In this document: in pieces, positions 1 to 35,700 of the stretch
Numbering within the stretch: the stretch's first letter is position 1
Layout of the letters: the number at the start of each line of letters is the position of its first letter
Source: Saccostrea cucullata
Taxonomy: Eukaryota
Reading direction: 5' to 3'
Assembly (NCBI RefSeq): GCF_032062105.1
Contig: NW_026929666.1
Coordinates: 248,001-312,000, forward strand
DNA: 64,000 bases
The notes under the pieces: generated by a model
Databases searched by the model: none
What the model saw: the letters and a program-made list of their open reading frames with translations, nothing else
Told to the model about the DNA's origin: nothing
Translations under genes and position numbers: made by a program

Positions 1-150
1 GAAAAGGAGCACACAGTGGGTATGACCGGTAGGCAGAGGATACTCACTCCCACCTCTGATGTTTTTGAGGTCCGTGTTTGCTCTGCTCCAATTTTGTACT
101 GTTTTATCGACTTTTGATTTTGCATACTGTTCGTTATATCCATATGTTTC
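1..150 (+). mobile_element. 3' end of Naiad-type Penelope-like retroelement (cut by window edge)
   Basis: Same 3' motif (ggagcacac..gggt.tgaccggt..cccacctctgatg..ggtccgtgtttgctctgctcc) that follows the RT remnant in the longer copies. Confidence 0.75.
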
Positions 151-359
151 ACTTAGAATCTACAGTTCTCAAGGAAGCTTTCGTAACCCTCTATACGTAA
201 ATGTAAGAAATCTGTCCAGTGGGTAGTACGAAATACCTTATTTTTGTGTGGTAAAAAGCTAAAGTTTTTTAGAAATTCAAAATATGTCTCTGATACTGCG
301 TGTTCTTTTAATGAAAAATAGAAAGAAAAAAAAATAAACAGTCCATTGAAACTATAGAA

Positions 360-790
360 ACTTGGAGCAAAACAAGCAATAAGATCTAAATACATCAGAG
401 GTGGGATTGGGTGCAATTGAGGATTAAACATTCCCTGTCATACGGTCACATGAACCATATGCTTTTTGTCATAAACAGTATCTGTGTACTGTCACCTTTG
501 AATTTGCAAATGTTGACTTTGAAAGAGACTTTTGATGGCTTGCCTCGTTTAAAAATTGTTCGTACATGGAGCTAGCTCTTATGCGTGGAAATAACATTGT
601 AGATAATACGTCGTCGATGTATCTAAATGTGTTAACTTTTTCCTTCCACGTCTTTAGAAAAACGTCTGCTTAAACGAAAACAATATGGCTGGTAACTATT
701 TGGAATTTCTGAAAGATTGTGGAAAACTTAATTGATCTTCAGAAACTGCAGATGTGTCTCAAAAGTGCAGATAATTTTTTTCCCTAAATA
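360..790 (-). mobile_element. Internally deleted Naiad-type PLE fragment
   Basis: Minus strand reads NTFRYIDDVLS (RT catalytic motif, ~600-635) fused to a YEQFL thumb remnant, then a degenerate 3' motif at 360-475. Confidence 0.65.
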
Positions 791-1469
791 TTTCATTGAA
801 AACAACATTTTTTAAATCACTGGTAAATGATTTATTTCTGTTCAATTCATTATTTATTTCAGTACTTTAACCAGAAAATGTGTAGTTATCTTTTTCTAAA
901 AGAACATTACTTATTCATTTTTTAGGAAAAAAGTAGCTTTTCATTCCATCAGTTCTAAAATTCAAGATCAATGACAATATAATTCAGTGTGCGTATGTCA
1001 CTTAAATTTTGATGTCAGACTTGAATAACAATAACTTTAAAATAACAAAACTGTTGTTTTTATCAAATAATCAACTGCTTGGAATATCAAGAAAGTTTGT
1101 GATTAAATCGGTCAAGAAATTTTGTCATGCCATTGATTTTACAAATATTCTGGCCCAGTAGTTTTTAAGAAAATAGGTGATTTCAAATTTTCTGAACGTT
1201 GCTTGGAGGGTTTTTAAAGGAAATCACAGCATATACATATACAGTGTACACTTCTTTAAACAGTGAAAAATAAGATTGCACTACCGGTAGTTCTGATTTC
1301 GAAGTACGGTACATGTCCTGCATTGCCGCTCAAGGGCCCATCCGCAAAACTGCTCACCAGCGTAACTACATGTATACTTTTTTCATAGCAGTTTCTTTTT
1401 CTTATATAATGCCAGGAAAATCTTGATTATGAATGGTAGCCCAAACCTCCGGGTTGTTATTTGAACAAA

Positions 1470-1970
1470 GAAGGATATTGAGATAACGAACAGTATTCAA
1501 TCTCGAAGTCCATAAAATAATACAAAACAAGAGCAGAGCAAACATAGACCTCCGAAACAGCAGAGGTGGGATCAAGTGCCACGGAGGAGTGAGCATCCCC
1601 TGCTGACCGGTCACACCCACCGTGTGCTCCTTGTCATGATCAGGAAATAACGGAAAAATCCGTCGTCAATTCAGTGTATAAATAATGGACTAACAATTGG
1701 TATAAAAAAACGTCAGTCAGCATTTGACTCAATGATAAATTATATTGGCTGACAAGGTCATTGTATCGACCATAGAACTTAGGAAATGGTGACTTTAAAC
1801 GAGACTGTTGATATTCTTGTTTCATCAACTTGCTTGTCAATAATTTACCTCGTTTTAGAAATTGTTCATACGTAGAGCATGCTCTTGCGTATCGAATCAA
1901 CAGAGATATATACACTCCATATGCAGGTGATAAAGGTATATTGCTGCATTAAGTAAGGGAAGTTGACAAA
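1470..1970 (-). mobile_element. Naiad-type PLE: RT C-terminal (thumb) region plus 3' motif
   Basis: ORF 1640-1915 reads YISLLIRYARACSTYEQFLKRGKLLTSKLMKQEYQQSRLKS..KFYGRYNDLV, characteristic of the RT C-terminus of N-terminal-EN PLEs; an intact 3' motif follows. Confidence 0.85.
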
Positions 1971-1989
1971 CCATCATTTAGTATACATG

Positions 1990-3090
1990 AAACATATGGA
2001 GATAACGAACAGTATTCCAGATCAATAAATTGTCCATAAAACAATACAAAATAGGAGCAGAGCAAAAACGATCTTCCAAAACATCAGAGGCAGGATCAGG
2101 TGCCATGGAGGAGTGAGCATCTTTCACTCATGATTTAAAAATCTAAATATTACATTTCGAAGCCCACATAAAAATGACTGATCATAACTTTGATGTTATT
2201 AAGGAGAGATTATTTTTAGATTTTCCTATGTATTTCCGCATAAAACTTTGATTGCCTGTTGTGGCGAAAAACCAAATCCACACAAGTCATGAGTTGCATA
2301 AACCTGAATGTACAATGCCTGTGGATGCTTACACATTGATACGTGTATATCTTATCATAATCTGAACTTACGAAATGCTGACTAAAAGGACACTGTTGAC
2401 ATTCTTGTTTCATCAACTTATTTGTCAGTAACACACTTCGTTTTGGAAAATTGTTCACACGTAAAGCATTCTTATGCGTACCGAATCAATTAAGAGATAT
2501 AAACTCTTTATGCAGGTGATACTGCTGCAAATGTAAGGTAAGTTGACTATTGAAATGTTATATCATCAGGTTTATTATAAAGGTTTGTAATTATATTTCT
2601 ATTTACGTCTTCTTAGTAAATGCCAAAAATGCAACATAAGTGTGCCAAACTCTGTAGTACCCTTATTTCAATCTTATTGGAATATATCGTGTCAAAATTT
2701 GATTTGAATAACTGTTGTTGACTGATTATAATTTATACGTCGCCGATATATCTAAATTCGAGTTGAAAGCCATAGCCTTTTTAAGATTTTGAAAAAATTC
2801 TGCTTAAAAATAGAAAAAATGCTTGCTAATTATATGTCGCAATTGGTACTCAAGGGAAATTCAATCAAATGTCAGAAGAGGCAGTCTGCAAAAAACACAT
2901 AGATATTGTCAATCAGAGACTCAGACACAATTTTAATATCAAGTTCAGAGTTCTTGTGTGTGCAATCAGAATGTTTTTTTTTTCACAGTTTGCAAATGAC
3001 CAATGAAAAGGTAGGTAAATTTACGAGTTTCATTTATATTGAATTATCTGTCGTCAATGATGTCAAAAGACAATTTTAAATCTGCACTTC
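1990..3090 (-). mobile_element. Degenerate Naiad-type PLE (RT core, thumb, 3' motif), interrupted at ~2123-2360
   Basis: Frameshifted remnants HSDCTHK.SELDIK, LIDNIYV, AFNS.FRYI.DV, LLTNKLMKQE; 3' motif at 1990-2122. Confidence 0.7.
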
Positions 3091-5019
3091 TTGGGATGCT
3101 TTCTTATAAATATGACTACCATTGCTTTTTGCTGTTCTTGAGAAAGATTTCACCTAGATTAATAACTTCTGAAAAAATAGTTTTTGATAATTTTTGTATT
3201 TTTTTTAGTATTTAAATTAGCTATTGAAATCCCATCCTACCCTCTTATAACATTATTTAAACAAATAAGAATCTCAAATACCTCAGAAGGATTTTTATAT
3301 ATATACAATATACTATATACAATGTATATTACATCTAACTTAATACAAAATTCCATATACCTTTTTACACATTGTGGCCATAAATTTAATAAATTAAATT
3401 GTCTTTTTTAACATTCTGCAATTTTACAGAAGTCGAAAATATTTGCTCAGTTAGCAGCTGTCTTTGAGGAAATAACTGGTACAACACTATAATCAACTCT
3501 GCAATAAGGTTTTCTTTTTCTATTGCATGTTAAAATCCGGGCCGTAGGCCGTAGCAACAGTTTTAAGTGGGAGAGGCAACCTTCTCTTACTGACATTACA
3601 GCACCGCCCTCCCCCCCCCAAAAAAATGCACCCAGCATCTAAATGAAAACTAATGTATACTTAAACTATAGCAAAGGGTTGTACTTAGAAAAATGTGGGT
3701 CTGGGGTACAGGGGCCAGTAACATTCTACATGTAGTATTTGATTTAACGTAATCGCAATATATCATATACAATTTCTTTTTTGTATATTAGTATATTGTA
3801 ATAATCTACAAATGTAGAATACAGTATGTTACCTGTCCCTGTGGGTGGGGGACTGTAAATGAATTATTTAATTTATAATCCTACAGCTGGAAATCAGGAT
3901 ATATTTGTATAGTTTTCAGCTTTTCCTTAAAAAGAAAAGTACTCCCAACAAAAGCAAAAGATACTTTTGGTATTTGTTTTCAAATTAGAATGCTTGTTCA
4001 GAGGGATCAAATTAAATATCATAAGAACAACTAAACAAACCATACTTTGACCATTTAAATATTTTAAGCGGGACTCCATTCATAGTTATAATCAAAGAAG
4101 ATGAAGGGTTAGTAGTTGCCTGCATTAAAAAAAAATCTTTAAAACGATTCTCAAGAAGTGTACCAAGTACAATAGACCTGTTGCAACCGAGTGGGAGTGG
4201 AGTCCACCTCGCAATAAAATAAGATAGAGAAAAAAATGACACAGCCTGTAATAGAAACCCTTTTTAATGAGGTTGTGGTGGTAAGACCTTTCCTTACTTG
4301 TTTTTTTCTTTCTTTCAAATTGCTAAGATTGGTCAGTATTTGCACTTAAAAGTAATAAGAATTTGGACAAATCAACATCTAAATGAAAACTTACATTATA
4401 TATTTACGCGAAAGATATAGTACAGAAAAAGTGGGAACGGTCATTTCAAATTCCCACTTTTTAAGGACGTGAAGAAAAACAATCGTTAATTCATTAAGAA
4501 ATATAAGCATTCAAATTTGGTCTTAACAAACGGTTGAGAAAGAACTACTTATAGTATAAGGTTGCAATTATCAATATCAATGCAAGGACAATTCATTTGA
4601 GTAATGTGTATCATTGGCATCCCGTTGCCATAGAAACAGAATAGTCTCTAGAAATGGGCATTATTCATTGATGTCTGAGAGATTAATTGAAACTTCAAAG
4701 ATTTTTCTTTCAGTCAATATATTCTACAAAGGCTATTATGAAGGTTCTTTTCATATAGAATACTTCATGTTTTGTGTAACAGCAATTACATATCAGATAA
4801 AGTAATAAGTATGCTTAGTTTGGCAACATTTATTAAATTAATACATTATCTGACAATAGATAGACATGGATTTTACATTATCACATATACAAAAGTATAC
4901 ATTTATATAAAAACGCTTATTTAAAAGAGAAAAAAAATGTTTGCAAGAGTTATATCTGCTGCATTTAAGTATTTCTACTTGAATTCTACAATAATTTTTA
5001 AAAAATATTGCATTTTAAC

Positions 5020-5790
5020 ATATGTGTAATCATAAGAGCCCCCTCTTAACTCCAGATCCCTGATCCAGGAGCGATGAAATTGACAGTTTTTGAAGAGGCA
5101 CACTAACTCATTATAAATACGCATTCAGTTTGTTTGCTCAATACCCAGGGTCAGAAAATGTTTTAAAAGATATTATGGAATTTCTCTATATACATGAACT
5201 AGTACTTAACAGAGCCCTAGAACCTTATGCCCTGATCTATGGGCCATGAATTTCACAATTCGGAAAAAGCATCTTCCTCATAATAAATATGCATCTAGTT
5301 TATTTACTAAATATCCTGGAGCAGAGATTTTTATTTAAGAAATATTGCATTATCACTATCATTTAACAAAGTTCCGCCGTAGCACCAGAACCCCTGACCC
5401 AGGGACCATGAATTACAAAATTTTCAAACCTTCAAAACTGCCCTGGAGGCCATGAATTTCGAAATTTATGTAGAAGACTCATTGCTTATTACAATCATGC
5501 CTGCAGCTGGACTGCTGATGTCATGGAGTAAAAACGATTTTTAAAGATGCATTGATAATGATGATTTAAGCCCTGACCCTTGGGCCCCAGTTGGTAGGGG
5601 ACATGAATTTCACAATTTTTACCCCCCTATATTCACAGATGCAATAGGCTAAAATTGGTGGATATGGGTTCGGTGGTTCCAGAAAAGAAGCTGGAAATCT
5701 TCAAATAATAACGCAAGACGGACGACGCACGCCCACAGACGAAAACAGATAGCAATATCTCACCTGAATAAACTCGTGTGACTTAAAAAG
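5020..5790 (+). mobile_element. Helentron-associated non-autonomous element (HINE-like) with ~165-170 bp internal tandem repeats
   Basis: Motif ccctga.cc..ggg.catgaattt.acaatt recurs at ~5057, 5230 and 5391, with further variants. Ends in gacggacgacg microsatellite plus terminal hairpin tcacctga...gtgtgacttaaaaa. Confidence 0.7.
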
Positions 5791-6011
5791 GTCAAATACC
5801 CTCAGGGTAATTTGAGTTAATCAAGCTATGGACAATGTGCGCAAAAACTAAAACTGAGAATTATCAATAATTTACGAATTTAGACATATTTGCCAAATTC
5901 TAAAATTTCAGATAATCAGCACTAACTCAATGATTACATGTACTTAAAAATGCCATACATCAATTAAACAAAAGAAATAGTGAACAGGACACAGTCGCCA
6001 ACCCCTGGTGT

Positions 6012-6084
6012 GGAAACATCAGAGGTGGGATCAGGTGCCTTGTGGAATTAAATAGCCCCTCTTGAACGGTCACATACGCCGTGA
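6012..6084 (-). mobile_element. Naiad-type PLE 3' motif fragment
   Basis: aacatcagaggtgggatcaggtgcc...cggtcaca..cgccgtg is the reverse complement of the shared motif. Confidence 0.65.
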
Positions 6085-6684
6085 AAGCGCGGTATTGATT
6101 AGGTAGAATGTGTATTTAGATCTCGTATAAAAGCAATGTCCTCATAATATAATATAATATAATATAATCAAGCTTAATTACTGTCATCTAGTTTGCTTGT
6201 TTATCATACAGGATTAAATAGTTTTCAAAGGTACATAGTGTAATAAATTTTCAATATATGAGCAATTAACTTCTACCTTTTGGCCTGAACACAGACCATA
6301 CACATGAAAAGGGTCATAATTCTGTAATTTATGGAGAGAGTAAATTATCATTCTAATCAGACAAGCAACTATCCTGGTAGTTGACCAAGAGTACAGAAGG
6401 TTATCTAAAAATAAATAAATATCTTTTCAATAAATGACCAATGAATGAGACAGATTATACATAAACCAGAAGCTACTTATTCTACAATTCTCGTTTTTGA
6501 TACAGGGTAAACAAAACCATAGAATAGTGAGTGTGCAAACAGATTCCCTGCTAGATTTTAGTTGATAAGAAAGATTTTTCTAAAGAGCAATGAATTTAAT
6601 ATTTATATTAGCCCAACCAACCACGGGGCTTGAACCTTTGAGTCTTGAGTGGGGATGGATTTTATAAGTTTGATAAGTGTTAAG

Positions 6685-7245
6685 GATACTTCCTACTGCA
6701 TGGCATCTGATCCCACGTCTGATGTTTTTTAAAGGCCCCCGTTTGTTTTTCTCTTTATTTCTTTTGTTTCAATAGACTTTAAAGCTTGATTACTTTTCCA
6801 TTGTCTCCATATTTTATAAAACTAGTGAAGATTTAAGCACTCATTCATTATAATTTTTTGGTCTGCCGTATGAACCTGAGGAAAGAAGATTTTTACAGCT
6901 AGGCGCAATGCTTTTATTTCTTTATTTCATAAGCTTGTCCCGATTCTTAGTCCGTGAATTGTGAACTACTAAATGATTGTAAATAGTTTTATACTCAAAC
7001 TCATTGTAATTATGTCCATGATTTCGTTTGCGTTTTTTTTTTCTTTTTTTATATCGATTTTCTGTTATTTCCCGATCATGACAAGGAGCAAACGACGGGT
7101 GTGACCGGTTTGCAAGGGATGCTCGCTCTTCTATGGCATCTAATCCCACCTCTGATATTTTGGAGGTCCGTGTTTGTACTGCTCCTATTTTGTATTGTTA
7201 TATGGACTTTTGAGCTTGAATACTGTTCATTATCCATAAAAATTT
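6685..7245 (+). mobile_element. Two Naiad-type PLE 3' motif copies (6685-6812 and 7055-7245)
   Basis: Both carry atggcatct.atcccac.tctgat..ttt..agg.cc; the second copy is complete from atcatgacaaggagca. Confidence 0.65.
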
Positions 7246-7399
7246 CATTTAAAAGATTTTGAAAGTAGAATTTCTTTTATTTTTCTTATTTTATATTTGA
7301 TCAACTTAGTCCCATTCTGAAAGCTGTACAAAGGACTACGAGCCAAAAATTATAATTCTGGTAAAGGTTTGAGTACTAATTCTAAACACACGAATAGTT

Positions 7400-7872: not shown

Positions 7873-8109
7873 CACGAAAGTGTATTTTGGGATTGTACAT
7901 GTAGCTCTGTAATTGAATTTTTCGCACTCAAAGAAGACCTTTTGTTATAATCAGCTTTTTATCACATTTTTTATTCAAGATCTCAAAAAGTGGTAGTACT
8001 TTAAAGAATCTTTGAGATCTTTTTGCAGGTTTTCTCACGCGAAAAACTAATAAATATAATAAGATACATGTACTTCATTTGACCTACATCCTTGTGCACC
8101 ACGTTTTGT

Positions 8110-8485
8110 TTTTTAAACGAGGTACTAGTAAGTTATAGTCAAACAAGAAGCCGAAACAATATCAGCAGTCTCGTTTAAAGTCATCAATTCTTCAGTTCTT
8201 CAGTGTTTGGTCGATACAATGACCTTGTCAGCAAATACAGTTTATCATTAAGTCAAATGCTGACTGACATTTTACATACTTATAGTTAGACCATAGCATA
8301 AAAACTGAATTGTAGACGGATTTCTCCGTTATTTCCTGATCATGACAAGAAGGGTGTGACCGGTCGGCAAGGGATGCAGCACCTGATCCCACCTCTGATG
8401 TTTTGGAGGTCCGTGTTTGCTCTGTTCCTACTTTGTATTGTTTTGTAAACTTTTCTTACTTGAATGCAATGTTATCCTCATGTAT
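8110..8485 (+). mobile_element. Naiad-type PLE thumb remnant plus 3' motif
   Basis: tatcagcagtctcgtttaaagtcatca (YQQSRLKSS) and ggtcgatacaatgaccttgtcagc (GRYNDLVS), then the 3' motif. Confidence 0.75.
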
Positions 8486-13576: not shown

Positions 13577-13578
<2 letters not shown>

Positions 13579-13636
<58 letters not shown>

Positions 13637-13638
13637 TC
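13579..13638. repeat. (CT)n microsatellite
   Basis: About 30 CT units with one interruption. Confidence 0.95.
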
Positions 13639-14312: not shown

Positions 14313-14357
14313 AGGTCAGATTATTGCGCAACAATGTCAGGTAAAAGGTCATGACCT
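14313..14357. promoter_or_regulatory. Candidate composite nuclear-receptor and C/EBP element
   Basis: AGGTCA 14313-14318; ATTGCGCAAC 14323-14332; AGGTAA-A-AGGTCA (DR1-like) 14339-14351 overlapping the perfect palindrome AGGTCATGACCT 14346-14357. Motif match only. Confidence 0.35.
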
Positions 14358-15994: not shown

Positions 15995-17275
15995 ATTATG
16001 CATATTAAGGAGTACTGTGCAACAATATATTCAACAAGTGGTGTAGATCAGATGAAGATACTAAAAAATTCCAACTTGAAGGAACTTTTAGAAAAGTTAA
16101 AGTCACAAATTTCTACCAAAATCAACAGCATTAAGATTATTTTAAGTCCAAGCTTTTTGAGATCATTGACAGCTGCTTTTTCAATTAAAATGGAACTCGT
16201 AGATTTACTTACCTTGTCGTTGGTCATTTGCAAAATTATTTAGAAAAAAAAACATTCTTATTGTACACTCAAGTATTCTGAAGTTGATATTAAAAAGATG
16301 CTTGAGTTTCTGATTGTAAATTAGCTTTGTAGTTTTTGGAGACCATGTTTTCCAACAGTCTATTGGAATTTATTTGGGTATCAATTGCATCATGCTATTA
16401 GCAGACCTATTTTTGTAATCATATGAAGCAGAATTTGTCCAAAATCTTATACGTGGCACTCAACTCGAAATTTATACACGATCGTCGACGAATTGTCAAT
16501 TAACAATTATGATTATTTCCATTCTTATGTCGATACAATATATCCCGTTAAGCTGACACATCTGTTTCATATTTGGATATTTTACACGTTAATGTATGTT
16601 TTTACTAGGTGAAAAACTTTTCAACGTCAACTTTCCTTATTTATCTAATATCACCTGCATGTTCTTATGACAAACTAGACTGTTTAACGTTCCTCTGACA
16701 CACTTTTCACCATTGCCGGTGAAGGGCTGCAAATTTAGGCCTACTCGGCACTTACGGCCTTTATTTATGCCACACCTGCTGTAATATACCTTCATCACCA
16801 TTTAGTCGTCTTTTACGACAAGCAAGGGGGTACTGAGAACCTATTCTAACCCGGATCCCCACAGTTGATTCGATACGGAAGAACATGCTCTATGTATGAA
16901 AAAAATTTAAAATGAGGCAAGTTATTGACAAACAAGTTGATAAAACGAGAATATCAGCCGTTTTCTTTTAAGTCATCATTTGATAAGTTTTATGGTCGAA
17001 ACAATGACCTTGTCAGCAAATTCAATTTATAATTATATCCTGATTGACGATTTTCATACTTATTGTTAGGTCATTATTTACTCACTGAATTCTGTTATCT
17101 CCAAGTCCTGACAAGGAGCACACGGCAGATGTGACCAGTTGGCAGGGTTTGCGCCCCCCCCCCCCATGGCACCTGATCCAATCACTGAGGTTTTGGAGGT
17201 CTGTGTTTGCTCTGCTCCTATTTTGTATTTTTAAATGGACTTTTGAGCTTGAATACTATTGTTATCTCCATATAT
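15995..17275 (+). mobile_element. Long degenerate Naiad-type PLE (RT to 3' end), interrupted by a SINE
   Basis: YCATIYSTSGVDQMKILKNS..KELLEKLKS, FQQSIGI, LLADLFL*SYEAEFVQNL, thumb remnant and 3' motif at 17090-17275. Confidence 0.85.
16680..16863 (-). mobile_element. SINE-like non-autonomous retroelement inserted in the PLE
   Basis: Body caccattgccggtgaagggctgcaaattt is shared with the copies at 39200 and 43895. 5' head on - is gtggggatccgggttagaatagg..ttgcttgtcgtaaaagacgactaaa. Confidence 0.75.
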
Positions 17276-17834
17276 TACATTTATGGTCCTTTGTTGTAAT
17301 AAGCTATCATATCTTCTGTTTGTGTTTATTTCTTTTTTTTTCTCTCTTTTTATTTTGCCAAAAAAAAAAAGTAATATTTTTTAGATACAAAAGTGTTTTA
17401 GATTATTAAAATCTTAGGAAAACCTTGAACTGTTTATTCATTTTGATGCTTGAAAAGATTAAAAATCTTATATATATATTAGGCAATGACATATGCACAT
17501 ACGTTTTTTAGCTCTCAAATATATATATTCTTAAGATTTAGATATCTTTCTTGAACAACAAAAATATCAATATATTTTTTGCAATTGATTTTTCATAAGT
17601 TATTGCCCAAAAAATTGAGCTGCAAAAATATTTTTTAGGCAAAACATCATCTAATCATTAAAGTGAAATTTTTTTTTCTTCAAAATAATTAAAATAAATT
17701 ATGAAGCTATATAGGTCTATTATCTTTTTTAAAAAATAGAGTTTAACTGCATGGATTTTTAATTTTAACCCTTATCACAACAGTTGGATGTTAAGTAGCA
17801 AGTGAAATGAAGTTTGCATGAAGCGTCCAACCTA

Positions 17835-19061: not shown

Positions 19062-19669
19062 TTCAAGGAAAGTCATACCTGGTATGTTTGTCTCACAGAG
19101 GATATTTATGTATACAATGTACCCATCTAAAATTCTGTGTAAATTTCCTATAAATAAATTCTTTTCAACGATATGAGATGTTTTCTTGTTCTAGACACCA
19201 GATCCTATCTGAAGATTTTCCAGAGATTCGCTTTTTATGTATTATTCAAAGATTCGTATAGTTTGATTGTTTATTATAGATTGGTTACTGTTCGTTATCT
19301 TAATCTCTTCATTTTTAAAAACAAAACTACCTTTAAAACGACTTGTCAATAAGCTAGCATGCACAACCCCTTGTTTAAAAATGTGCATCTTTTTTGAAAT
19401 TTTTTGGCTATTAAAATAATTATTGTTACTTTATTTCCATTTTTACAGGCTAATCGGGGTTCAATGGATATCGACTTATAATGGTAGTGTGGAACATGCT
19501 CAAGATAATCGAATCATCTTTGCAACGTAAACGTTTGCAGGTTATAATTGTTTATTGCTACATAGATAAGAAAAGATAACTTCAGGAATTAGCTGAAATT
19601 ATTAAGTTAATCAAATGTCTAGCTAATGGTTAGTTTGGCTGTTTTTCTGTTGTAAAATATCCAAATATG

Positions 19670-20320
19670 AAATATATACGATATATTCTGATGAGCTTGA
19701 GATAAAAGACACCGCAGAGTCTGACACATCTTTTTCATTCATGGATATTTTACTTGAAAAAGACACTAATGGTAATCTAACAACCAAGCCCTATGATAAA
19801 CGTGATGACTTAAACTTTTCAATCGTCAGCTTCCCTTTCCTATACAACAATGAACCTTCATCACCTTCAAACGGAGTTTACATATCTCAGTTGATTCGAT
19901 ACGCAAGATCATGCTCTACGTATGAACAATTCCTAAAACGAGGTAAATTATTGACAAAAAGTTGAAGAAACAAGACTATCAGCAGTCTCGTTTAAAGTAA
20001 TCATTTCGTAAGTTCTATGGTCGATACCATTGACTTTGTCCACAAAAACAATTTATCATTAAATCACATGCTGACTGACGTTTCTTATACAAATTGTTAG
20101 TCCATTTTTTACGCTGAATTGTCGACGGATTTTTCCGTTATTTCTCTATCATGACAAGGAGCACAAGGCGGATGTGACTGGTCGGCAGGGGATGCTCACA
20201 TCTCCATGGTACATGATCCCAGCTCTGATGTTTTGGGAGGTCCGTGTTTGCTGTGCTCCTATTTTGTATTGTTGTATGTACTTTGATATTGAATACTGTT
20301 TGTTATTTCCATATCCTTCA
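19670..20320 (+). mobile_element. Naiad-type PLE 3' half
   Basis: ELEIKDTAESDTS..FMDILLEKDTNGNLTTKPYDKRDDLNFSIVSFPFL...GVYISQLIRYARSCSTYEQFLKRGK, then a full 3' motif at 20120-20320. Confidence 0.88.
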
Positions 20321-21204
20321 TCTATCAGACTTTATGGATTCAAAGCGATATATTGAATCAAATTAACTAAGTATAATTGACTGATAAAATATCCTCCATG
20401 TATCTTTGTAATTAGCATAACTATCAAACAAGAGGGACAAACATGCAATGAAATTTCAAGTAAAAAATCAATTGTTACTAATATTCTATAGAAGGGTTAT
20501 TTGTTGATTTATTAATAATTATATGATATACATCTGTATGTTTTTTTTATATAGAATCCAGAATCAGTACAAATATTTTGAACTTTTTTAACTTTGGTTC
20601 ATGGTCATTGCTTCTAGTTTCAAAAATTTAAAAAAAATCAATTTTCTTGATGTTCAAGAATCTCTGTATTTTTGAATCACTGTTTTAGATGTTAATGCTT
20701 TAAAATTATTAAGAAAAACTTTGAATGAAAACTGAAACTTTAAGAAGCAACAATTATTCATTTTATATATAACTTGGATATATAGCATTTTACGTGTATA
20801 GTTCTTTTGTTCTTTCCTTTTACATTTCTTTAGTTCTTCCTTTTGAACCCTCAAGCCTGCAAATTTTTTTCTCTTCTCTATTTACGTGACACAAGAATGA
20901 TAACTCATTCTATTCTTATGAGCAAAGGAAAGGGGAAAAAATTCTGTAAATTATGTTGTATATAATAAGTAGTTTTTAAATTTTAACTCAGATTATTTGA
21001 AAGGAAAACTATTATTGTTAAATTATTTAATTAAACCTAGTGAAGTTCAAAAGCTTTGATAAAGAAAATGTGGAAACAAGATGACAGAAAGGATTAGGGT
21101 TGAAAAAGATTCGTTCGTAAAGAAAAGAAAATCTTCAGAAAAGTATTCAATGTAAAGTTATACAAAGAAATACATTTTATTGAAGCTCAAGGGGTCATTC
21201 AAAA

Positions 21205-21295
21205 ATACAGATCGAGCATACACAGAGCTCTAAATTATCAGAGATGGGATCAGGTACCATGCAGGAAGTAGCATCCTCTGCCGCTGGTCACAATG
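21205..21295 (-). mobile_element. Naiad-type PLE 3' motif fragment
   Basis: atcagagatgggatcaggtaccatgcagga.gtagcatcctctgccg.tggtcaca. Confidence 0.6.
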
Positions 21296-23766
21296 TGCTA
21301 CATTCTAATTTAAAGTATATCCGTGTATAAAAGAACATGTACATGTATATCACAAAATCAACATTTATCCGTGTAGGTGTGCAGTAAACATTACACTCAT
21401 TCATTTTAAATTTCCATGAATAGATAAAGACGACAGAATTTGAAGAAAAACTTTTCCAACAAATTTCTGCCAATGGATTTAAATACATTCTATCGATCCT
21501 CAAATTTTACATTTGGGATTACATGTACCTGTTTGTTATGGTGTCGTTTTGATTGACGCAATGCATATTTTGAGTGATTTTTGCTTTAATTGTATGTATC
21601 ATTTAAGAAACATAAATGCTATGGGCAAAAGACGAGGGCGTTTTTGTTTACCAAATCGTCTTTTAAACGTGATAAATACATGGGGTGTTTTTGTTAAGCA
21701 AATAAACCGTAGTACATGCATGTAAATAAAGAATAATCATTTTTTGTACTAGGTATGGAGGTGTGTTTTTTTTTTGCATGTGGGATAAAGTACGATTGCC
21801 TTTTTTATGAAATCATCGTAATAAAGGATTTTTATACCACACGTGAAAAAAAGTTTTATTCTCACATTACATCACAACCCAGTTGTTTGGGTCCCATTTT
21901 TCTTGCCTTTTATGAGAAAAATACAAGTGAAAATGCAATTTTTTGTGAATTTGTACTGAAAATTTCAGTTCAGTTTTAGCATTATTAAAATTCAAGAGTT
22001 TTATGTGAAAAAAGAAGGCATTTGAAATCTGTTTCTTGATAGGTGCAAAGCTTTATAGTATAATTAATGTTTCGAATTCGATATGTTCTTAAAACAAAAT
22101 TGAAAAATAAATTTCCTTTAATTACTATTCAGTAGTTAATTATTTACAACAAAACATTGCATTTCTCCTTTAATATTCTTAAATGTCAAAGTTATTGGCA
22201 AAATGACAAAAAGTTAAAAGAATATGCACATACGTGTACAGAACTGCAATATAAAGTATAAATTTTTTATCGATATCTTTACATTTCTCATACACTTTAC
22301 ATACCATAAATCATCGTTATCAGGTACATTGTACATCCTTCTTTAAATTTCATAACACCCGTTATTCAATTTTTGTCCATTGCATAATTTATAGCGCTCA
22401 TTTCATTCTGAGATCAATTCTTTTATTGGTTCTGATTTATTAAGTATTAAAATGAATTTTTTCCCCTGAATTTTACAATCGATACCGTCAGTTTCAGGTG
22501 CCAATACCTTTTTTTTTTCTACACGATGAGATCAAATGAGAGAAAAAAAAATGTATGTTATATAATTTTTTTATTTTTCAAGCAAGAAAACAAAGTTTAG
22601 AAGCCACGAATTCTATTTGTCTGAACAAATAAATCTAAACAAGTAAGTAGCAACAATATCAGGTCACAATTAACAAGCTAACATCAACATTCAAAATACC
22701 AAACTAAACCAAGTTATCCCCAGGAAACAAAAGTATTTGAAAAGTAAAATGAATATAAAATACCCCCAATATCTACGAAAAATCCTTGTAGCATACACGT
22801 AGCAATATGATAAGAAGACATACGAAGAAAAGACGCATTTGTACCAAAAATACACATCACTGTGAAAACAAATACATGTATCCATATATATAAATATATA
22901 CTTGTTGTATATATACAGTTTATATAAGTTTTGATTACAGCAAATTTTCTGAAATCAAAATAATTTTGACTAACATTTTATGTATCTATTTTGAGAAAAT
23001 TGCATACATGTTCTTTAACGTATATACATATGTAAATCCATTTAACAATAAATCACATGAGCATCTATCCGCCTTTCATTTATAGTTTTAAATTTGACGT
23101 CTGTAAGTTCTTCTCTGAGAAATCCTATATTATATATATCAAAAAGGCTGAAAATGTTATTATTTCCTATCTGAATTTGAATTGACTATTTTAAGTATTC
23201 AAGGCACGGTTAATGCCCTTCAGAAAATTTATGACCATAATCTTACAGGAAGTAAGTACATATATGTACATTATGGATGGTCATACCAAAGAACTCAATG
23301 TCATTGTTTTATTTATCAATTCTAACAGAATAACAATTAATTAGAGAGATAATGAAGTCAGCATGTGTATCTCAGATCGCACTTTTACTTCAAACAATTA
23401 GCTACCTGTGTACTCTTATCGGAAACAATACAAGGTGTTTACCCTTCGGAGCCTCGCCCCTGCCGTTGCATTGAAATACAACTGATAAGACAAAATATAC
23501 CTGTATACCTCTCTTTCCGGCTGATTTGGAGGTAGCCGTGATGAATTGAGGCTTTAATAACGTTATCAGAAGGTTTATTGTACCATCAAGTAGTGAAATG
23601 TTTCATGTTTGACTCAGTGATTCCATTTAAGGTTTGGCTTAATTGTGGACGATTTTAGGAACTACATGTAGAGTTGGACGACTTTTGGTTGATTATCGAA
23701 TCCGATATGACGTTTTGACTGTTTGTGTTATTGCAGTCCTTCACATAGGATCAACCATTGCTCAAA

Positions 23767-26700
23767 ATGGGGTAATTTTTTAATTCATATCATATAAAAA
23801 AAAATAACTAAATATAAACATAATCTTACTTTAAAAAGAGATTATTAATAATTATTGAAACCAACCTCTGACTATTTTTGCAGCTGGTGGAAATGAAAAT
23901 TTATTTTCAATTTGATTGAATGTTATATTTATAGTATTTTTTAATCTTAAATTTGAAACAAATTTAATCATTATGATCCCTTAAATGTATCGATTGACAC
24001 AGCTTTGCTATCACATAACTTCCTACTGCAGATTTATGTAAGGAGCGCATGCCTTAGTTTTCTTGAGAGCCCTTTATCTTTCGTTTACCGATGTGCATTT
24101 TATCGACACTATAGGAAATCAATAAAAAGATAAATTGTTTCCTAGTACAGAAATATTTGTGTAACCATAGCTGGATGCTAACATGCCTTATTTTTTACAA
24201 CCTTATTTTTTACAACAAAGTGCCATGACTGAGTGCATACATTGTGAAATATCTAGAAACGTAAATACTCATGAACATCATATGCATATATATCATTCAA
24301 ATTAACGTTCTAAAAACAGAGAGAAAAAATATTGAGATTTTTAGAAAAACATAATGCCATTGTGCACCTCTTATTTTACTTTTGGATCGGACACATATTT
24401 TGGGTTTCCTATAGAAAAAGGTGAACACTGCCCTTCTTTCTATATTGTAGAGTACCAATCTCTTATTCAAAACTCCTCCCATACCTCTAAATAAAACTTA
24501 ATGATACTTTCTAAGATATTTTATAACATACTATATAATTATACAGTAATGTCATTGAGTACCTCCTGTTTAACATTTTAATCTGACATTTATTTCGGTT
24601 CTCTCAGAGTAAAACATGGACTTTGCCATTATAATCATATGGGAGGCGGGGGTATCATTGAGCTCAGTGTTCAAAGTACCTCTAGTTACATTTGTTTTTT
24701 CGTATATGGTTAAGGTTAGAATTGCTTTTTAATACATACTCAAACAATTGGTTAATAGGTTTGTTTATGGTCTGTTTAAATGCTTAAATATCCATAATCT
24801 GACATTATTTGTAAAATGTTAGATTATCTTCACATGAAAACAATCACACTCAATATTAACGAATCCTCGGCATACATTTCACAGAATTAATTCTGGATAT
24901 AATGATTGATAAGTTATGTCACCTTTCTCAAACACAGGGCTGGGTAAGATTTTCGCGTACGGGGAGTTGACCAGAGAAAATATTTCTTATCAGAATCGTT
25001 CCCCGGAAACAGAACATTTAAAAACTGTCTAGGAGCAATAGACTTAGATATTGACAGAATATCCTTATAAGGCGGATAGATATAACATTTAAAGCTACCT
25101 AATCTCATTCCATATTCTCATATTATTTACTATAACTTTCTTTTTTGTTGTTGTTTGGAGCATGTATTCCTAAAATGTGCACATTTAAAAGGATAAACAG
25201 TTTTCTACATATAAAAAGTGAGAAAAATATATTTTTCAATAATAACAGAATTTTTCTATTCATTTGACTGATATTGAAAATTGATATCACTGCTTTTAAT
25301 GAAGATAAAATCAAAACATAATTCAATATATGTATTATATTCATATATGGCATATTCTGGGAAGAATTATAGCAATAATTTTGTTTGTGTGAAAATATCA
25401 TTATACATGTATTTTGATCAAAAGAGGGCATGGTTATTCAATTATTATTCATAAAATAAGGACCTAGTGAGGAAAACGTGTATGTAAAGCCGTAAGACAT
25501 GAAAGAAGAGGAACTAATAATGTATGATTAATTTGACAAATGTATATTAAATACATCTTACCTTTCATGCAGAGCGAAAATCGGAGCACTACTCTTTTCT
25601 ATTTTGTCTATCATCGAATATTGTTCAGGTAAGTACAATAAAATGCTAAAAAGTAATTTTTAAATCAGTCATATTGCTGTTATATACACATAATTTTGAT
25701 TGACGGGTATCAAGGTATTTATAGAATATACCATTTTTGTAGCAAATTGTACCACATTATTGCAACATAATCGCAGAATTACTATAAACGACACAACAGG
25801 TAAGTCAAATGTTACGACATAATTGGTAAGTTAAATCTTATATATCATGTTGATATTGAGATCTTACAATCATATATCTTGTACATATTAATATTTACGT
25901 ACAGGAAGAGATGCAAAAACCCAATTGTTAAGAAATGATTTTTTCTCAATATATGATGTCCATGAAAACTCGTAAACGTATGTATTTTGAAATGACATTT
26001 TAAAATCAAGAAGAAAAAAAACTGAAGATTTCATAACATTCCAGATTCCTCTTCTTATATCCAATGTGCCAAAGTAATTCAGTTTCAAAGCTTTCTTTCA
26101 ATATATTTTACCAACCATGAAAATGGGACACCAGAGTATTCTTATCTTCCTTTTCTTTGCATAAATTAACATTATTACATATTCGACTAGCAATTAGGTC
26201 AAGACGCCCCATTGTGAGAGAAAAAAATAACTACTCGTTAAAGAAATTTTTCAAATTAATTGTTCGGCCATTACTAGAATTTAAGGCCCTGAGTTTTTAA
26301 AGATTCTTTCGTTTTTCCTTATCATTGACAAGGAGCACACGGCGGGTTCGACCAGAAGATGCATAATCCTCCATGGCACCTTATCCCACCTTTGATAATT
26401 TTAGAAGTTCGTGTTTGCTCTTCTCAGGTTTTGTTAAGTGGACTTTGAACCTGAATACAGTATGTTTTCGCCATATTGCACTGTTTATAACCTTAAAATG
26501 TTATTAAACAACAAATTTTTGACAATTGTGTGTAACTCATTACTACCTGTGGGGTAGTAAACGATATTATTATACCTCATTATAAATATTCTAAACAACA
26601 CGTTATCTGCTTGGTTCTAAGTTATCACGTGATCGGGCCGTAAAACTTCATATTTCCCGGCCGTCGGCACGCTTTTCATCATATTCCACCTCTTCGGAAC

Positions 26701-29700: not shown

Positions 29701-32700
29701 TTTTCTCTTCTTTTTAAAAAATGTATTCATTTAATTTTTTTTAGATAAATGTTGATATTTTGAAAGTCTTTTTCTAAGACTTCAGAAAAGATCTAAGTGT
29801 CTTAAATTGCTTATAATTACAAAAATTGACCTCATGTGCATCGAGTATTTTTCGAAAGGATGCGAATGCTTTATAGCACAAGTGTACTTTTAAGGTACAT
29901 TTCGTCTTTCCCCCACGATTTTGTAAACCGAAAACTGTATATTCTTATCTAAACATTTAGAGTTAACTTTGGAATAACTTCATTAACGATGGAGAAAATA
30001 CGTACTTATATAAAAAAAAACTTAAAGTATGAAAAATGATCCCTTTTGTTCTTTGTAGTGAGTGTATTCTGTTCATAGGCAAATGCCTGTAATTTTCCCT
30101 TCATGTTTGCCACATTAGAGGTATTTCACCTTGTACATACATCTTCTTTCTTTCTTTATTTATTATTGCTACATGTATATATGTACAAGGTTATTTTTTG
30201 TCCTTTCTTCCTTGCAAAAAATTTTGTCCCGTTTTAAATTCGACCAGTCACACTTTTGTTTAAGAAATCATGATGTGCTCTTATGATTTGCCCCGTTCTA
30301 AACACACCCAGCTGTAAGTAGGGCGAAAGGGGCAAAATAAAACGGGGGCAAAATTTTCAAGTTGTTACATCTTGATAACAAAAGATGATGTATGAAAACA
30401 TGACAGCTTTCTCTTTTATTCTTCATTATTGATCTTCTTTGGGGCTTTGAAAAGTGTACAAATATTTCGTCGTTATGAAATATTCTTCTTCTTTCTTTTT
30501 TTTTTTGGAAATATGTTTATTAAGAATTGACATTGGCACATTAAAAGCGTGTTTTTTAGGCATCTTTAAGAAAAATAATTAACGCACGCATCTGATGAAA
30601 AATATTTTTTTGATTTATTCCCCAATCCTTTCAAACATCAAAATTATTTTTATATGGGTTCTTCAGCAAATTTTATAATAAAGCACTCTTTAACATATTA
30701 CCAACTTTCAACATTTTTTCTCAGTGTATCGATAATAGGAAAAAAATAATGGGTAAGAGTTCTCCGATTAGGATTTTGTCTATATGAATATGAAAACAAA
30801 TACTGAAATTCTACACAAAATACATGGAGATAACAAACAGTATTCAAAATCAAAAGTCCATATAACAATATAAAATAGGAGCAGAGCAAACACTGACCTT
30901 CAAAACATCGGATGTGGGATCAGGTGCAATAGAGGAGTAAGCATGCCCTGCTGACCGGTCACACCCGTCATGTGCTCCCTGTCATGATCGGGAAAATCTG
31001 TCGTTAATTCAGTGTTTCATTTAAAGACAGAAACATAATACAGGACAAAGACAGAAGGCTTTTGTTTTATTGTTTGTTTGTTTTTTGTTTTTTTATCTTC
31101 CTCTTTTTGTTTTTTGTTTGTTTGATTTATATTGTTTTGTTTAGACTTGGATTTTTATAGCCATTTTGATTACCATAAAGATTGATTATTTGTTAATTTT
31201 TTTTTTTCTTTTGTGATTGGCTTTTTGCATTTACCATATCCGATTCCCTGAGTAATCATTTATATACAGTGATTTTGTGTGATATGTAATTAGTATTCTG
31301 TCTTTTTCAGTGAAATATTGGAGATATGGGGGTTTAAAGAACCTTAAACATTGAAAATTGTACATCGTACTTTGTGGAGAACCCAATAGAATAATGTATA
31401 AGTCTATTTTGGGCTAAATTGACCCTGTATACATGCATCTTAGAATGAAATTTAGAATTTTTAAATACTGTTCTAAAATTAATCTTTCCAGTAAGTGAAT
31501 TCTGATTGAATATGATTGCAAGTAGTGACAACTGAAATGCAAATATGAAAAATAAGCTGTCAACTATGGTGTTGAATATACACAATATTTTTAAAGTGTT
31601 AAGTACAAATCAAACCGAAAAAAGAAACCATAAGATTATTGAACTATTTATCAAACTCGCAAAAATAGTGATTTGTATCAATATCAAAACATTGTATACC
31701 TTAACATAATCTTCACATTCGTGTAATACCGACAAGAGCAAGTAAAATAATATACTTGGATTTTTGATCTGTTTAAATCTAAAAAAAAATATACGCATTA
31801 CTTTATAGGAATGATGGTATCCTTTCTTGCTTATGGCCATTTTACTTCATAATATCTTACATTATGAGGATGGTAGTAGTTGCCTTGTATTTGTATTTAC
31901 CAGGGATGGGGTCAATGACTTTAAAAAGTAATTAATTAAATTACAATTACTTTGACTTTTTCTTCAATTAAATTACAATTAAATTACAGGCTTTCTAAGA
32001 CATGTAATTAATTAAATTACAATTACTTTACAAAAGTAATTAATTAAATTACAAATTACATCTTTAATTTTTTGAAATTTTTTATAATCATATGAATATA
32101 CAGAACAATCATTCACTTGTATATAAGCGCAGGCTCTGCACAAACAATACAAGAAACAATATGCTATTAGGCATTGTGTATCTTTGTGGTTTAAATCATA
32201 ACTTTTATTTACAAAACAGTAAAGAACTATGTAAGATCAATTTGATGCAGTTTCCTCCACACAAAACCTACATGTACACAAATTGCATGGGATATGATAT
32301 TTAATTAAAAGTGTGTATTTTAATGGAGTAAAATAAGTAGCAACTATAACCTCTCAAATTAAATATTTCTTTTAAAGGTAACCCTAACATCCTAAATTGC
32401 TATTTATGTTGAACATGTATTTTTACTTCAAAATAATACTTGTACAAAACATAACATTTTACAAAATTCATTTAAAATTCTGTTTAGATGTTAAATTAAT
32501 TATCAAATTAAAAGTTTTTTCTTTTCTCAAACTAGCGGGGCATTTTTAATTGAAATAATTATATCCATACATTGGCTTTGTCATAATCATGGAATGGATA
32601 CCTCTTTAGAGGGGTTGATTTGTTTTGATTGCAATTTACAGCTATGATCTGGAGGGCAATTATCTCTTAATACCAACAAGAGAGGGAACTTCATTAATGA

Positions 32701-35700
32701 ACACATTCCTTTTCTTGACACACACATACTTATTCTTCAATGATCAAAAAGATACTAAAATATAATAAATTATTTGCGTTTCATAGCTTGAGATGGTGAA
32801 AAATGATAAACATAAAACAAAAAATTTCAAATTTTATGCATTATTAGAAATAAAATGATTGGCTTCTGTTTAATTGAAGGACTGAGGATATGTTTTGCAA
32901 TTAAAAAAAACATTTAATGGGGAGGTGTGGTGACAATATATCATGCATGTGTATTATATAAAGTAATTGAATGTAATTAAAAAAGTAATTGAAATTACAT
33001 GGTATTTTTTCAGTGTAATTAATTAAATTACAATTACAAGTAATTGAAAAAATGTTCAATTACTTTCCAATTACTTCAAAAAATTTGTATTTACATTTAT
33101 TGCCGTTATGAAGCATAACTTTTTTTTCATTTTTGTTGTTTTAATGAATTGATTTTAGTTTTTGTTAATTAAAAGATATACATTTCTTTCAGGCAGTTAA
33201 TATTGGAACTGTTGTACATCAGTTTTCCTATAAAGATGCTATCCGAGAGGACTGCATGGACACAAAAAATACCTTTTATTCCATGGTGAGAAAACATTTT
33301 GCAAAACTTTCTGATTGAAAGCATTCGCATTTTCAACAAATATAATTCTAATCTTAACTTTCCACATCGCAAGGTAAATTAAACACCAGGCAATTTTATA
33401 TGATTGGCAACTGCTTTTTCAATAAAAACCGGAACTCGTTAAGCTTGCCATTGATCATTTGCATTTTTTTTTTCTTATTCAAAACATTCTGATTGTACAT
33501 AAGAGTACTTTAAAATTGATATTTTAAAAAAAGAAAATGTTTTTGTTTCTGATTGTGACAATGTCTATGTGGCGTTTGAATATCAACAATCTTTTGAACT
33601 TTCCATTAGTGCCAATTGTGTCCCGTAACATAAACAGACTTTTCTTATTCATATGAAGCAGGATTTATTCAAAATCTTAAGCATAAGAAGAAAAGAACAT
33701 ATTTGCTGCCGCCTTCAACTCGACATTTAGGTACACCGAAGACGTTTTATATATATAAACAATAGTTAATGCCATTCATATGTCGACACGATATATCCAA
33801 GTGACACTGAATTTAAAGATATCAAATAGTCTGACACATGTGTAGTACTTGGATGTTTACTAGAAAAAGATTTTTTTATAAGATAATGGTTATCGAACAA
33901 CAAAGCTTATGATAAACGGGATGACTTTAACTTTTTTATCCTCAGCTACCCTTTTTGTGCAGCAATATTTACATTACACATGTATTTTCAAAAAAAGTGT
34001 ACTGAAAACTATGGCATTTAAAACACCATAACAAAGAAAGGGGGTTAGAAGGTTAAAGCACGTGGAGTTTTTTTTTCACGTCACAAACGATGAACGCCCA
34101 TGAAGTGCAACGTCATTAGGGAAAATCACAAATCACGATCATATTGACTATCAACTATTACATTAGCTCTTCCATTAATGAAGGATAAAATAGGGATTTT
34201 GAAATATACATCACATTCGCAATAGAGACATAGTTTTAAAAATGTAAATTTAAGCTAACGCATGTACTCAATTTGTTTGCACGCATCATTGCATCTATGA
34301 GACAATATCTTTCAAAAAATGTTTCATTGCTTATTAAATGTACCCTTACAACTACATGTAGCACACGAGGTTAATATCTATCAACTTCAATACGCAAAAG
34401 TCTGCTTTATGTATCCTTATATATAAACAATTTCTAACAGGAGGTAAGTTATTAACAAACAAATTGATTAAAGAATATCAACAGCCTCATTTAAAGTCAT
34501 GATATTTTAAAAATTATGGTCAGTAAAATTACCTTGTCTGCAAAAACAATTTATTATTAACTTTAAAGCCGCTTACTCCGAAACAGGCACATATTATCTT
34601 ACACAATAAAAGTACGTCATTACATAGAAAATATATGAAAAATAAAAAAAATATATACGATTGATTTAATAGTTTATTTCAACAGTCCTTACAAGGAAAA
34701 CAAAGATAAAAAACCTTGTTGACAAACAGAAGTTCCTGACGGGAAGTTAAGATCTCGCTATTCGCAATGTCGTGAAGTCACCTTTGAAAAAATTATATTT
34801 ATCGGTTATATCTAATCATGAAGAAAAAACCCGAGTATTTTTTTTTTCATTAGTTGAAGCCTAAGTCATAATATATCTTTTAAAAATTAAGAAACTAATT
34901 GAATATAATCCATAGTAATTTTTATACTAATATGCACATTTAAAAGAATAAAGGAAAATCAGATATTTTTAAAGGTTCTTTTTAAAGGAAGTACATGTAT
35001 GGTAACGCATTTATAGCAATGAAGGCTAAAATATTGTCCGTGTACACGTCTAAGTATACTTTGTTGTGAAAAAGAAATGCTCGGGTTTGTTCTTCAACAT
35101 TAGATATAAGCGATAAAATAATTTTTCAAAGGTGATTTCAAGCCATTGCAAATAGCGATATCGTCATAGGATTATATTTTGTGTGACCCAACAATAATTA
35201 TTTTTTTAACTTTTAATTCTGGTATCTTTTAAAAGAAAAAGAGTTTGGGGATATAATATGACAAAAGTTGAAACAATCAATGGACAATTATTTTTCAAGA
35301 AGAAAACGAATATATTTTTTCGCGATTAGAATCGGACTAAGCGGCTTTGATGCCGACCGTCGTTTTTCATACATATTGTTAGGATATTATTTACACACTG
35401 AATAGTCGATAGATCTCTGCGTTATTTCCCAATTATGACAAGGAGCACACGGTGGATGTGACCGGTCCGCAGTGGATGCTTACTTCTCCATGACCATGCT
35501 TGGGATGCTTTTGAAGTTCGAGTTTCCTCTGCTCCTTACATATGTATTTGTTTTATTTGAATGGATTGTCGGTATTATAGGAATAAATGGAATAAGAACG
35601 TCTAGTTCTACGGAAGCCCATTTAGGATCTTTCAAAAAATATTTTTGGATTCGATATATAGAATTGTCGAAATTTTTAAAACAAATTTAATTGTTTATAA

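Follow-up and report, generated by a model that had tools for sequence, protein, structure and literature searches.

We examined a 64,000-nt stretch of the Saccostrea cucullata genome (contig NW_026929666.1, positions 248,001 to 312,000, referred to below as the window) in which fragments of a Naiad-type Penelope-like element (PLE) carry an RNA motif of about 95 nt near their 3' ends. The motif combines a pseudoknot with two palindromes in a skeleton of fixed joining strands, and it is almost certainly a selected RNA structure. Judged from comparison across element families, two copies of it probably work together. Our analysis puts the chance at about one in two that the motif is a ribozyme which cleaves itself as a dimer, belongs to a class not yet described and occupies the hammerhead slot. 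While the element itself is known, the fold, a pseudoknot with two covarying and putatively intermolecular palindromes, appears to be undescribed.

Covariation of the motif across element families

The motif was searched with a pattern in which the joining strands were fixed and all helix letters were left free except those of stem P2 (CGGGUG/CACCYG). At least 122 loci matched in metagenomes and none in viral contigs; of the six matches in GTDB genomes, five were chance matches in bacteria and the sixth was a bivalve-type copy on a contig of 407 nt. The 127 distinct matches (among those listed, one genome copy included) formed 43 clusters, seven of them bacterial and 36 others. After 13 diverged singletons of two large families were dropped by eye, 23 families remained from the metagenomes and the S. 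cucullata genome.

It was found that the 10 nt behind CGGGUG (PAL1) are fully self-complementary in 22 of the 23 families, in 20 different sequences, and shared descent therefore cannot explain this self-complementarity. The single exception carries a one-base deletion. The innermost pair of PAL1, which joins adjacent bases, is complementary in 22/23 families and occurs as four pair types. A further helix links the 5 nt behind CAG to the 5 nt behind CACCYG, with all five pairs formed in 21/23 families; because it crosses the CGGGUG/CACCYG stem, it is a pseudoknot. The second palindrome (PAL2; 6-8 nt, before CACCYG) has at least 3 bp per half in 20/23 families. None of the seven bacterial chance matches possessed PAL1, the pseudoknot or PAL2 in full, and none of 5000 permutations, in which the shuffles ignore relatedness, reached the observed means. 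The terminal hairpin P3 and the closing stem P1 are joined without linkers in 16/23 families, compared to 6.9 expected and one of the seven bacterial matches.

When a pair counter was applied to a 25-sequence alignment, 95% of cells were paired versus 34-44% in slid controls, and 13 of 19 pairs had changed on both sides (score 0.65 versus 0.16). Stem P2 is near-invariant and was itself included in the search pattern; its support hence comes from complementarity and folding, not from covariation. At the family level G-U exceeded A-C 10 to 1, which argues for folding of the sense strand; since wobble pairs favor that strand, a reading of GURAGC as an antisense splice donor was set aside.

A preliminary description of the window, made from its letters alone, had proposed a structured 3' RNA and called for a covariation check. 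The palindromes and the pseudoknot, both overlooked in its fold, do covary across families. Its closing stem, terminal hairpin and conserved structure stand. Its CAGG/CCUG and UGC/GCA stems do not, as they showed no compensatory change and were broken in 3-7 of the 25 sequences at four of seven pairs. Its GGUG/CACC pairing exists, as a conserved stem and not as a competing one. GGGUG can pair with YACYC as well as with the CACCYG strand, and the two partners are inseparable from the data because both vary only between C and U. A pairing of the pseudoknot strand with the loop YCYUC, which covaries in bivalve families and is seen in nested folds, was also rejected because it fails in the other families; it may represent a monomer state.

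Probable pairing between two copies

The second-innermost pair of PAL1 encloses only two bases, and because such tight palindromes cannot form hairpins, the complementarity of PAL1 and PAL2 would be usable only between two copies. If both palindromes pair across copies, the intervening segment would pass over to the partner, and each core would then be built from both copies. A partner motif is available within the same transcript by way of the partial tandem, with one motif in the pseudo-long terminal repeat (pLTR) and the other at the 3' end. Cofolding, by a method that cannot draw the pseudoknot, moderately supports a dimer: the mean gain was -10.9 kcal/mol compared to -6.9 with shuffled palindromes, and 13 of the 16 families gave values lower than the mean of their controls.

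The parent Naiad element and its copies in the window

Self-comparison of the window yielded a single repeat family, and the longest window copy, used as a query, gave 14,379 first-look candidates in the 1.17-Gb genome. With a search profile built from 29 genome copies, all 14 copies listed in the preliminary description were matched on the strands it had given (E 2e-11 to 8e-206), and a weak 15th piece was recorded at 19185-19307 (E 0.02). The best match in five block-shuffled windows reached only E 0.58. Across the motif, the consensus drawn earlier by eye is identical to the majority sequence of the genome copies.

On sequence grounds these copies are 5'-truncated, decayed 3' ends of a Naiad PLE with a published consensus, Naiad_Sglo, to which the 3' end of the family is near-identical by eye. 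The Naiad-type identity and the location of the motif in the hammerhead position, both suggested earlier, are supported. The motif starts 59 nt downstream of the stop codon of the reverse transcriptase (RT), and in the profile from genome copies the family ends sharply 67 nt downstream of the motif. Three full-length copies were fetched, with frames of 1009-1028 aa. In the 1027-aa open reading frame (ORF) of one locus (L433), Pfam placed GIY-YIG at 159-247 (E 1e-4, at the cut-off) and RVT_1 at 732-878 (E 0.002, below the cut-off), and CSCSSS (CxC), VPADKA (DKA) and RRKRSHGHR (KR-rich block) were present. Naiads are described as having an N-terminal GIY-YIG, CxC, DKA and a C-terminal RT (Craig et al. 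2021, PMC8557442; this and the other papers cited here were available in part, and statements resting on them apply to those parts). The family shares this anatomy with Naiad_Sglo and related Naiads, along with a length of 3.3 kb and partial tandems.

5' truncation, partial tandems (pLTR) and inverted copies were all found in the family. A second whole motif stands in the upstream pLTR of two of the three full-length elements, 3.3 kb from the first, where the pLTR matches extend over 1441 nt at 99.9% and 350 nt at 97.4%. This pLTR motif lies about 70 nt upstream of the element 5' start. Seven of the 14 listed window copies extend upstream into RT coding sequence and the other seven hold only untranslated region (UTR). 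The 5' ends of 93 unselected copies were spread continuously, and no cluster of 5' ends was seen in the UTR (at most 4/39 starts in any 3 nt, p 0.65). Because of this spread and the lack of a fixed 5' end independent of the ORF, motif-only copies are truncation products and not short interspersed elements (SINEs). Of the two explanations offered in the preliminary description, 5' truncation suffices alone and SINE-like mobilization is not supported in this genome.

It was noted that the copies at 1988-2121 and 6684-6812 are without the 5' half of the motif, and that internal deletions occur in those at 1-151, 8109-8453 and 35350-35555. None of the 15 window copies was intact (all 20 invariant bases and all tested helices), and 3 of 81 core-spanning copies were intact in a 1.46-Mb genome sample. 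In dead copies, non-CpG divergence was 8-20% by motif segment versus 14% in the ORF. Because motif decay matches ORF decay, the survival of the motif noted in the preliminary description is not due to selection on dead copies. No other motif-bearing family was encountered among the loci fetched from the S. cucullata genome. When the pseudoknot strand in the pattern was exchanged for another, 507 matches resulted, and each of the 30 fetched proved to be a mutated copy of the Naiad family described here; a divergent RT query also returned this family in 30/30 loci fetched.

The first 150 nt of two loci (L432 and L433) hold a conserved 5' motif, GCUGGUGGA ... CCCCGAGG, followed by a hairpin around the start codon region. 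By eye, this 5' motif is common to Naiads with and without the 3' motif in the available part of PMC8557442 File S5, and it is a candidate RT-binding or initiation site. Elsewhere in the genome (L389:3063-4415, G000:C2726), a five-copy tandem array of a 272-nt unit derives from an internally deleted Naiad end and holds only the 3' half of the 3' motif.

Distribution of the motif

Of the 54 published Naiad consensi, 12, from four phyla, carry the motif at their 3' end as judged by eye (PMC8557442 File S5). These are Naiad-1 and -2_Chem in Cnidaria; CGi, Sglo, Olur, Tgra and Pmar in Mollusca; 1 and 2_Skow and 1 and 2_Pfla in Hemichordata; and the final entry in the file, which going by the metadata order is Naiad_Cmel from a fish. 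The motif was absent from 10 other consensus 3' ends of that file inspected by eye; the remaining consensi were covered by string searches only, in which a motif split across two lines goes undetected.

Of the 23 family representatives, 11 have a Naiad RT end immediately upstream in the same orientation; among the metagenome matches listed, this holds for 31 of 120 loci, versus 2 with the RT end on the opposite strand. The linked RTs are 62-67% identical to that of the Saccostrea family, with one at about 36-45%. No Naiad RT was seen in five representatives with 877-1200 nt of upstream DNA, and Pfam found nothing informative on 37 ORFs near RT-less motif loci. At one such locus (L067:235-1252), the motif follows by 290 nt an ORF piece with a C2H2 finger, no Naiad RT being seen; we take the piece to recall the N terminus of a site-specific non-LTR element. 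Another locus (L115) is a non-coding unit of about 990 nt with a whole motif at one end and the 3' part of the motif repeated at the other, possibly a non-autonomous element. No RT was found at six GC-richer motif loci (L092, L133, L161, L168, L173 and L177).

Comparison with known RNAs

The Rfam check suggested by the preliminary description matched no family to the motif. On the window (E up to 1) only two chance miRNA matches were returned, and on 20 diverse loci (E up to 5) there were three weak matches and no ribozyme on the motif. One of these three, to KCNQ1OT1_1, lies over the motif of locus L181 but on the opposite strand, at 15 bits versus a cut-off of 70. No paper describing the motif was found in a literature search whose coverage did not extend to most subscription journals and unpublished motif collections, and the available parts of a 2026 retrozyme preprint (10.64898/2026.07.22.740005) and of PMC10085705 do not mention it. 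Craig et al. (2021) report Naiads without canonical hammerheads and list hammerhead ribozyme cores and SECIS elements; in the available part, the structure of this 3' motif is not described for the Naiad consensi.

The hammerhead core (CUGANGA, GAAA, UH) is absent from the 25-sequence alignment, and the lack of CUGANGA and GAAA already remarked on in the window was confirmed. The motif resembles the PLE hammerheads (Cervera and de la Pena 2014, PMC4209133) in its 3'-end and pLTR slot, its tandem arrangement and its putative palindrome-driven dimer. Unlike them, it lacks the core and has two palindromes instead of one, a pseudoknotted fold, and cleavage that is only predicted. A palindrome that lets tandem copies pair, as in dimer hammerheads, is present here, a likeness in working and not in membership. 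The hammerheads of canonical PLEs are reportedly minimal, with a palindromic stem III (Cervera and de la Pena 2014; Lunse et al.).

[quoted passage not shown] Unlike HDV-like ribozymes, the motif has no P1.1, L3 or J4/2 in HDV order, stands at the 3' and not the 5' end, and has no Rfam match. The nested double pseudoknot of HDV, with P1.1, a 3-bp P3/L3 and a catalytic C in J4/2, was not found; here pseudoknot, hairpin and closing stem follow without a linker. Twister-P1 (RF03160) is likewise a small structured retroelement RNA, occurring at RTE-like 5' ends in the Saccostrea genome, but the motif has no twister sequence blocks (neither the UAA cleavage loop nor an L4 with the T1 and T2 pseudoknots) and a different topology; Rfam detects twister-P1 in 10 of 11 other loci scanned in that genome and never on the motif. 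Pistol, hatchet, twister-sister and hairpin ribozymes gave no Rfam match, although strand-swapped forms could escape the models. Retroviral dimerization initiation signals are palindromes that vary in sequence yet remain self-complementary. The palindromes here, in a retroelement RNA, vary in the same manner; they differ in being two, in a pseudoknot, with about 20 fixed bases, a 3' location and no presenting hairpin loop.

Proposed function and its alternatives

Under dimer-dependent self-cleavage, a transcript through a partial tandem would contain two motifs, one from the pLTR and one downstream of the ORF. PAL1 and PAL2 would each pair with their counterpart in the other copy, and the segment of RCAG, pseudoknot strand and GCUYACYC would be handed to the partner, giving a strand-swapped dimer. 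The near-invariant joining strands would form a predicted active site that stays idle until two copies come together, and the predicted cleavage would release unit-length RNA to be circularized or used as a template. More tentatively, and at somewhat less than even odds, this may be a new structural ribozyme class, the first obligate strand-swapped dimer held by two palindromes, with both copies forming each active site. Such a class would occupy the vacant hammerhead slot in Naiads of cnidarians, molluscs, hemichordates and fish, would occur also away from Naiad RT genes, and would act as a copy counter that cuts tandem transcripts only.

In the motif, about 20 joining-strand bases stay fixed while the helices vary freely and the linked RTs diverge to the extent given above; a covarying scaffold around a set of constant bases is the pattern of small ribozymes and riboswitches. 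The hammerheads of PLEs, with their palindromic stem III, cleave as dimers in tandem and occupy the same slot (PMC4209133, PMC6765202), and pistol, hatchet and twister-sister were found via slots common to several ribozyme classes (PMC10085705). Among the Naiads of the published set, by eye, those without this motif carry other palindrome-bearing structures in the slot, two with a twister-like P4/L4 signature; overall, a hammerhead core fills the slot in some, a twister-like signature in others and a third palindromic motif in still others.

Several observations weigh against self-cleavage or against its structural basis. The conservation of the fixed bases arises in the metagenome set by construction, because these bases were in the search pattern, and it rests on the 12 published consensi read by eye. 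With the 13 dropped singletons restored, PAL1 is complete in 27, the pseudoknot in 24 and PAL2 in 25 of 36, and G-U exceeds A-C only 14 to 10. No known catalytic motif is recognizable. The UTR starts described above reveal no sharp junction inside the motif, and motif starts in a large metagenome family are also scattered by eye, in contrast to the sharp beginnings, again by eye, of twister-led RTE-like elements in the Saccostrea genome. In three RNA-seq runs (unstranded, oligo-dT), no pile-up of read ends was seen at the motif. This test is weak because the libraries are unstranded and mostly hold passenger copies, about 80% of reads stemming from motif copies inside other transcripts; runs holding under half of the words were excluded, except X2. 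The active hammerhead of PAc likewise left no such RNA ends (PMC11167929). The 272-nt array, the one tandem array found, was considered as a non-LTR retrozyme (tandem non-coding monomers of 150-400 nt, each with a whole ribozyme) and rejected, since it is without P1, the P2 5' strand and PAL1.

All of the dimer evidence would fit equally well with a non-catalytic element for dimerization or template handling, in which the palindromes would hold together either two separate RNA copies or both ends of one tandem transcript, while the Naiad RT reads the fixed bases. Favored template jumps would then explain the partial tandems and inverted copies. This reading agrees with the lack of a cleavage signal in junctions and RNA-seq, with reports that hammerhead cleavage is dispensable for PAc insertion in vitro and that the PAc protein is modeled as a dimer (PMC11167929), and with a frequency of 5' ends per base, in the motif and immediately upstream of it, about twice that in the ORF, an excess that may be stalling or a boundary artefact. 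We consider it the main rival, though clearly less likely than self-cleavage. Many published Naiads, including mytilid families with similar RTs, lack the motif and by eye have other structures in its place; the separate 5' motif, seen by eye in Naiads with and without the 3' motif, is a better candidate for an RT site; and the five representatives with long upstream DNA showed no Naiad RT. A protective or regulatory knot, which would block exonucleases or control translation or 3'-end formation in dependence on a second copy, is improbable. It would suit the compact pseudoknot with zero-length linkers, the position of the pLTR motif ahead of the element 5' start, and an RNA depth over the motif about 4 times that of the ORF end, versus about 1.6 times in DNA copy number. 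Such a knot has no need for two palindromes, however; the depth peak can come from older subfamilies matching best in the motif, and no RNA end was seen at the motif 5' edge.

A known small ribozyme with an HDV-like or twister-like core, so strongly permuted and strand-swapped that Rfam models missed it, seems very improbable. Non-circular hammerhead permutations do exist in nature (PMC10085705), and the motif can be mapped in part onto HDV, the RCAG behind a palindromic helix resembling J4/2. Compared by eye with the consensus features, the motif nevertheless has no P1.1 GG and no L3, a 6-bp P1 with C at +1, no CUGANGA or GAAA, and neither UAA nor twister L4; the Rfam search at E up to 5 found no ribozyme. 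It is scarcely credible that the motif has no selected structure and is simply what remains of a GC-rich UTR, or a SINE-like unit. The window copies are decayed in a neutral manner, and a single copy folded alone is unremarkable (z -1.33), which also counts against self-cleavage. The cross-family covariation contradicts this reading, and the continuous 5' truncation with no fixed 5' end also speaks against it. Dimer-dependent self-cleavage is the reading that we prefer among these.

Other structured RNAs and features of the window

In the available part of PMC8557442 File S5, two short palindromes lie by eye upstream of a twister-like P4/L4 signature at the 3' ends of Naiad-1_Movir and Naiad-4_Chem, without an evident UAA/P1 order of the usual kind; the word "twister" is absent from the supplement text searched. 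A third conserved 3' motif is common to Naiad_Mgal, Bpla and Mphi; its palindrome of 8-12 nt is not the same in the three families. Upstream in the 3' UTR, Naiad-1, -2 and apparently -4_Chem have another conserved structure, rich in GC, which is shared by Clytia families that have different downstream motifs. In the Saccostrea genome (G000), Twister-P1 matched L390-L393 and L396-L401 with scores under the gathering cut-off (E from 8e-8 to 2e-5), the matches standing at the 5' ends of RTE-like non-LTR elements; an endonuclease ORF follows directly behind in most, and the flanks diverge at the ribozyme start by eye.

Table 1. Element copies and motif parts in the window
Feature	Position	Strand	Remarks
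Best-preserved copy	1469..1969	-	RT thumb end, 3' UTR, motif, element 3' end; columns 146-644, E 2e-173
P1 closing stem, 5' strand	1620..1630	-	in 1469-1969 copy
P2, 5' strand	1614..1619	-	family CGGGUG; first base mutated in 1469-1969 copy
PAL1, 10-nt palindrome	1604..1613	-	putative intermolecular helix; 1469-1969 copy
Joining strand (R)CAG	1600..1603	-	conserved; 1469-1969 copy
Pseudoknot helix, 5' strand	1595..1599	-	1469-1969 copy
Joining strand GCUYACYC	1587..1594	-	conserved; candidate active-site or tertiary-contact strand
PAL2, 6-nt palindrome	1579..1584	-	one G-U change in 1469-1969 copy; putative intermolecular helix
P2, 3' strand	1573..1578	-	family CACCYG; one change in 1469-1969 copy
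Pseudoknot helix, 3' strand	1568..1572	-	1469-1969 copy
P3, variable terminal hairpin	1548..1567	-	1469-1969 copy
P1 closing stem, 3' strand	1536..1547	-	1469-1969 copy
Copy	1..151	+	columns 478-644; internal deletion takes PAL2 and P2 3' strand; may continue past window start
Old UTR-only copy	340..478	-	columns 470-606
Copy truncated within motif	1988..2121	-	columns 516-644; partial tandem just upstream of 1469-1969 copy
RT-only fragment	2364..3068	-	same family, without motif
Old UTR-only copy	5959..6098	-	columns 474-605
Copy truncated within motif	6684..6812	+	columns 515-638
UTR-only copy	7058..7238	+	columns 456-635
Copy with RT end	8109..8453	+	columns 253-608; two internal motif deletions
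Longer decayed copy	16010..17276	+	RT pieces 16010-16660 and 16774-17276, the latter with motif
Weak extra 3'-end piece	19185..19307	+	unlisted in the preliminary description; E 0.02
Copy with RT end, UTR, motif, sharp 3' end	19678..20320	+	columns 1-644
Inverted RT piece	19489..19674		directly upstream of 19678-20320 copy
Old UTR-only copy	21179..21299	-	columns 485-618
Copy	26243..26476	+	columns 400-638; half of PAL1 deleted
Copy	30823..31085	-	columns 367-637; 20 invariant bases all kept; one pseudoknot and one PAL2 pair broken
One interrupted copy	33375..35555	+	RT pieces 33375-33968 and 34361-34571; motif-bearing end 35350-35555

Outside the motif region, a run of 132 N lies at 58979-59110. 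From the ORF list, by eye, we take 38342-42921 (+), 45514-46545 (-), 54526-56515 (-) and 60518-62209 (+) to be host genes, presumably encoding cadherin-like exons, a single-exon G protein-coupled receptor, a mucin-like membrane protein and a B-box/NHL (TRIM-like) protein.

Implications

At about 95 nt, with a defined skeleton and natural intact copies, the motif makes the question of self-cleavage directly testable. Self-cleavage would make it a new class of ribozyme from animal genomes; without self-cleavage it would still be an undescribed covarying dimerization module of a telomerase-like retroelement. The presence of a different fold in the hammerhead slot, again needing two copies, suggests that pairing between tandem copies may be the selected function.

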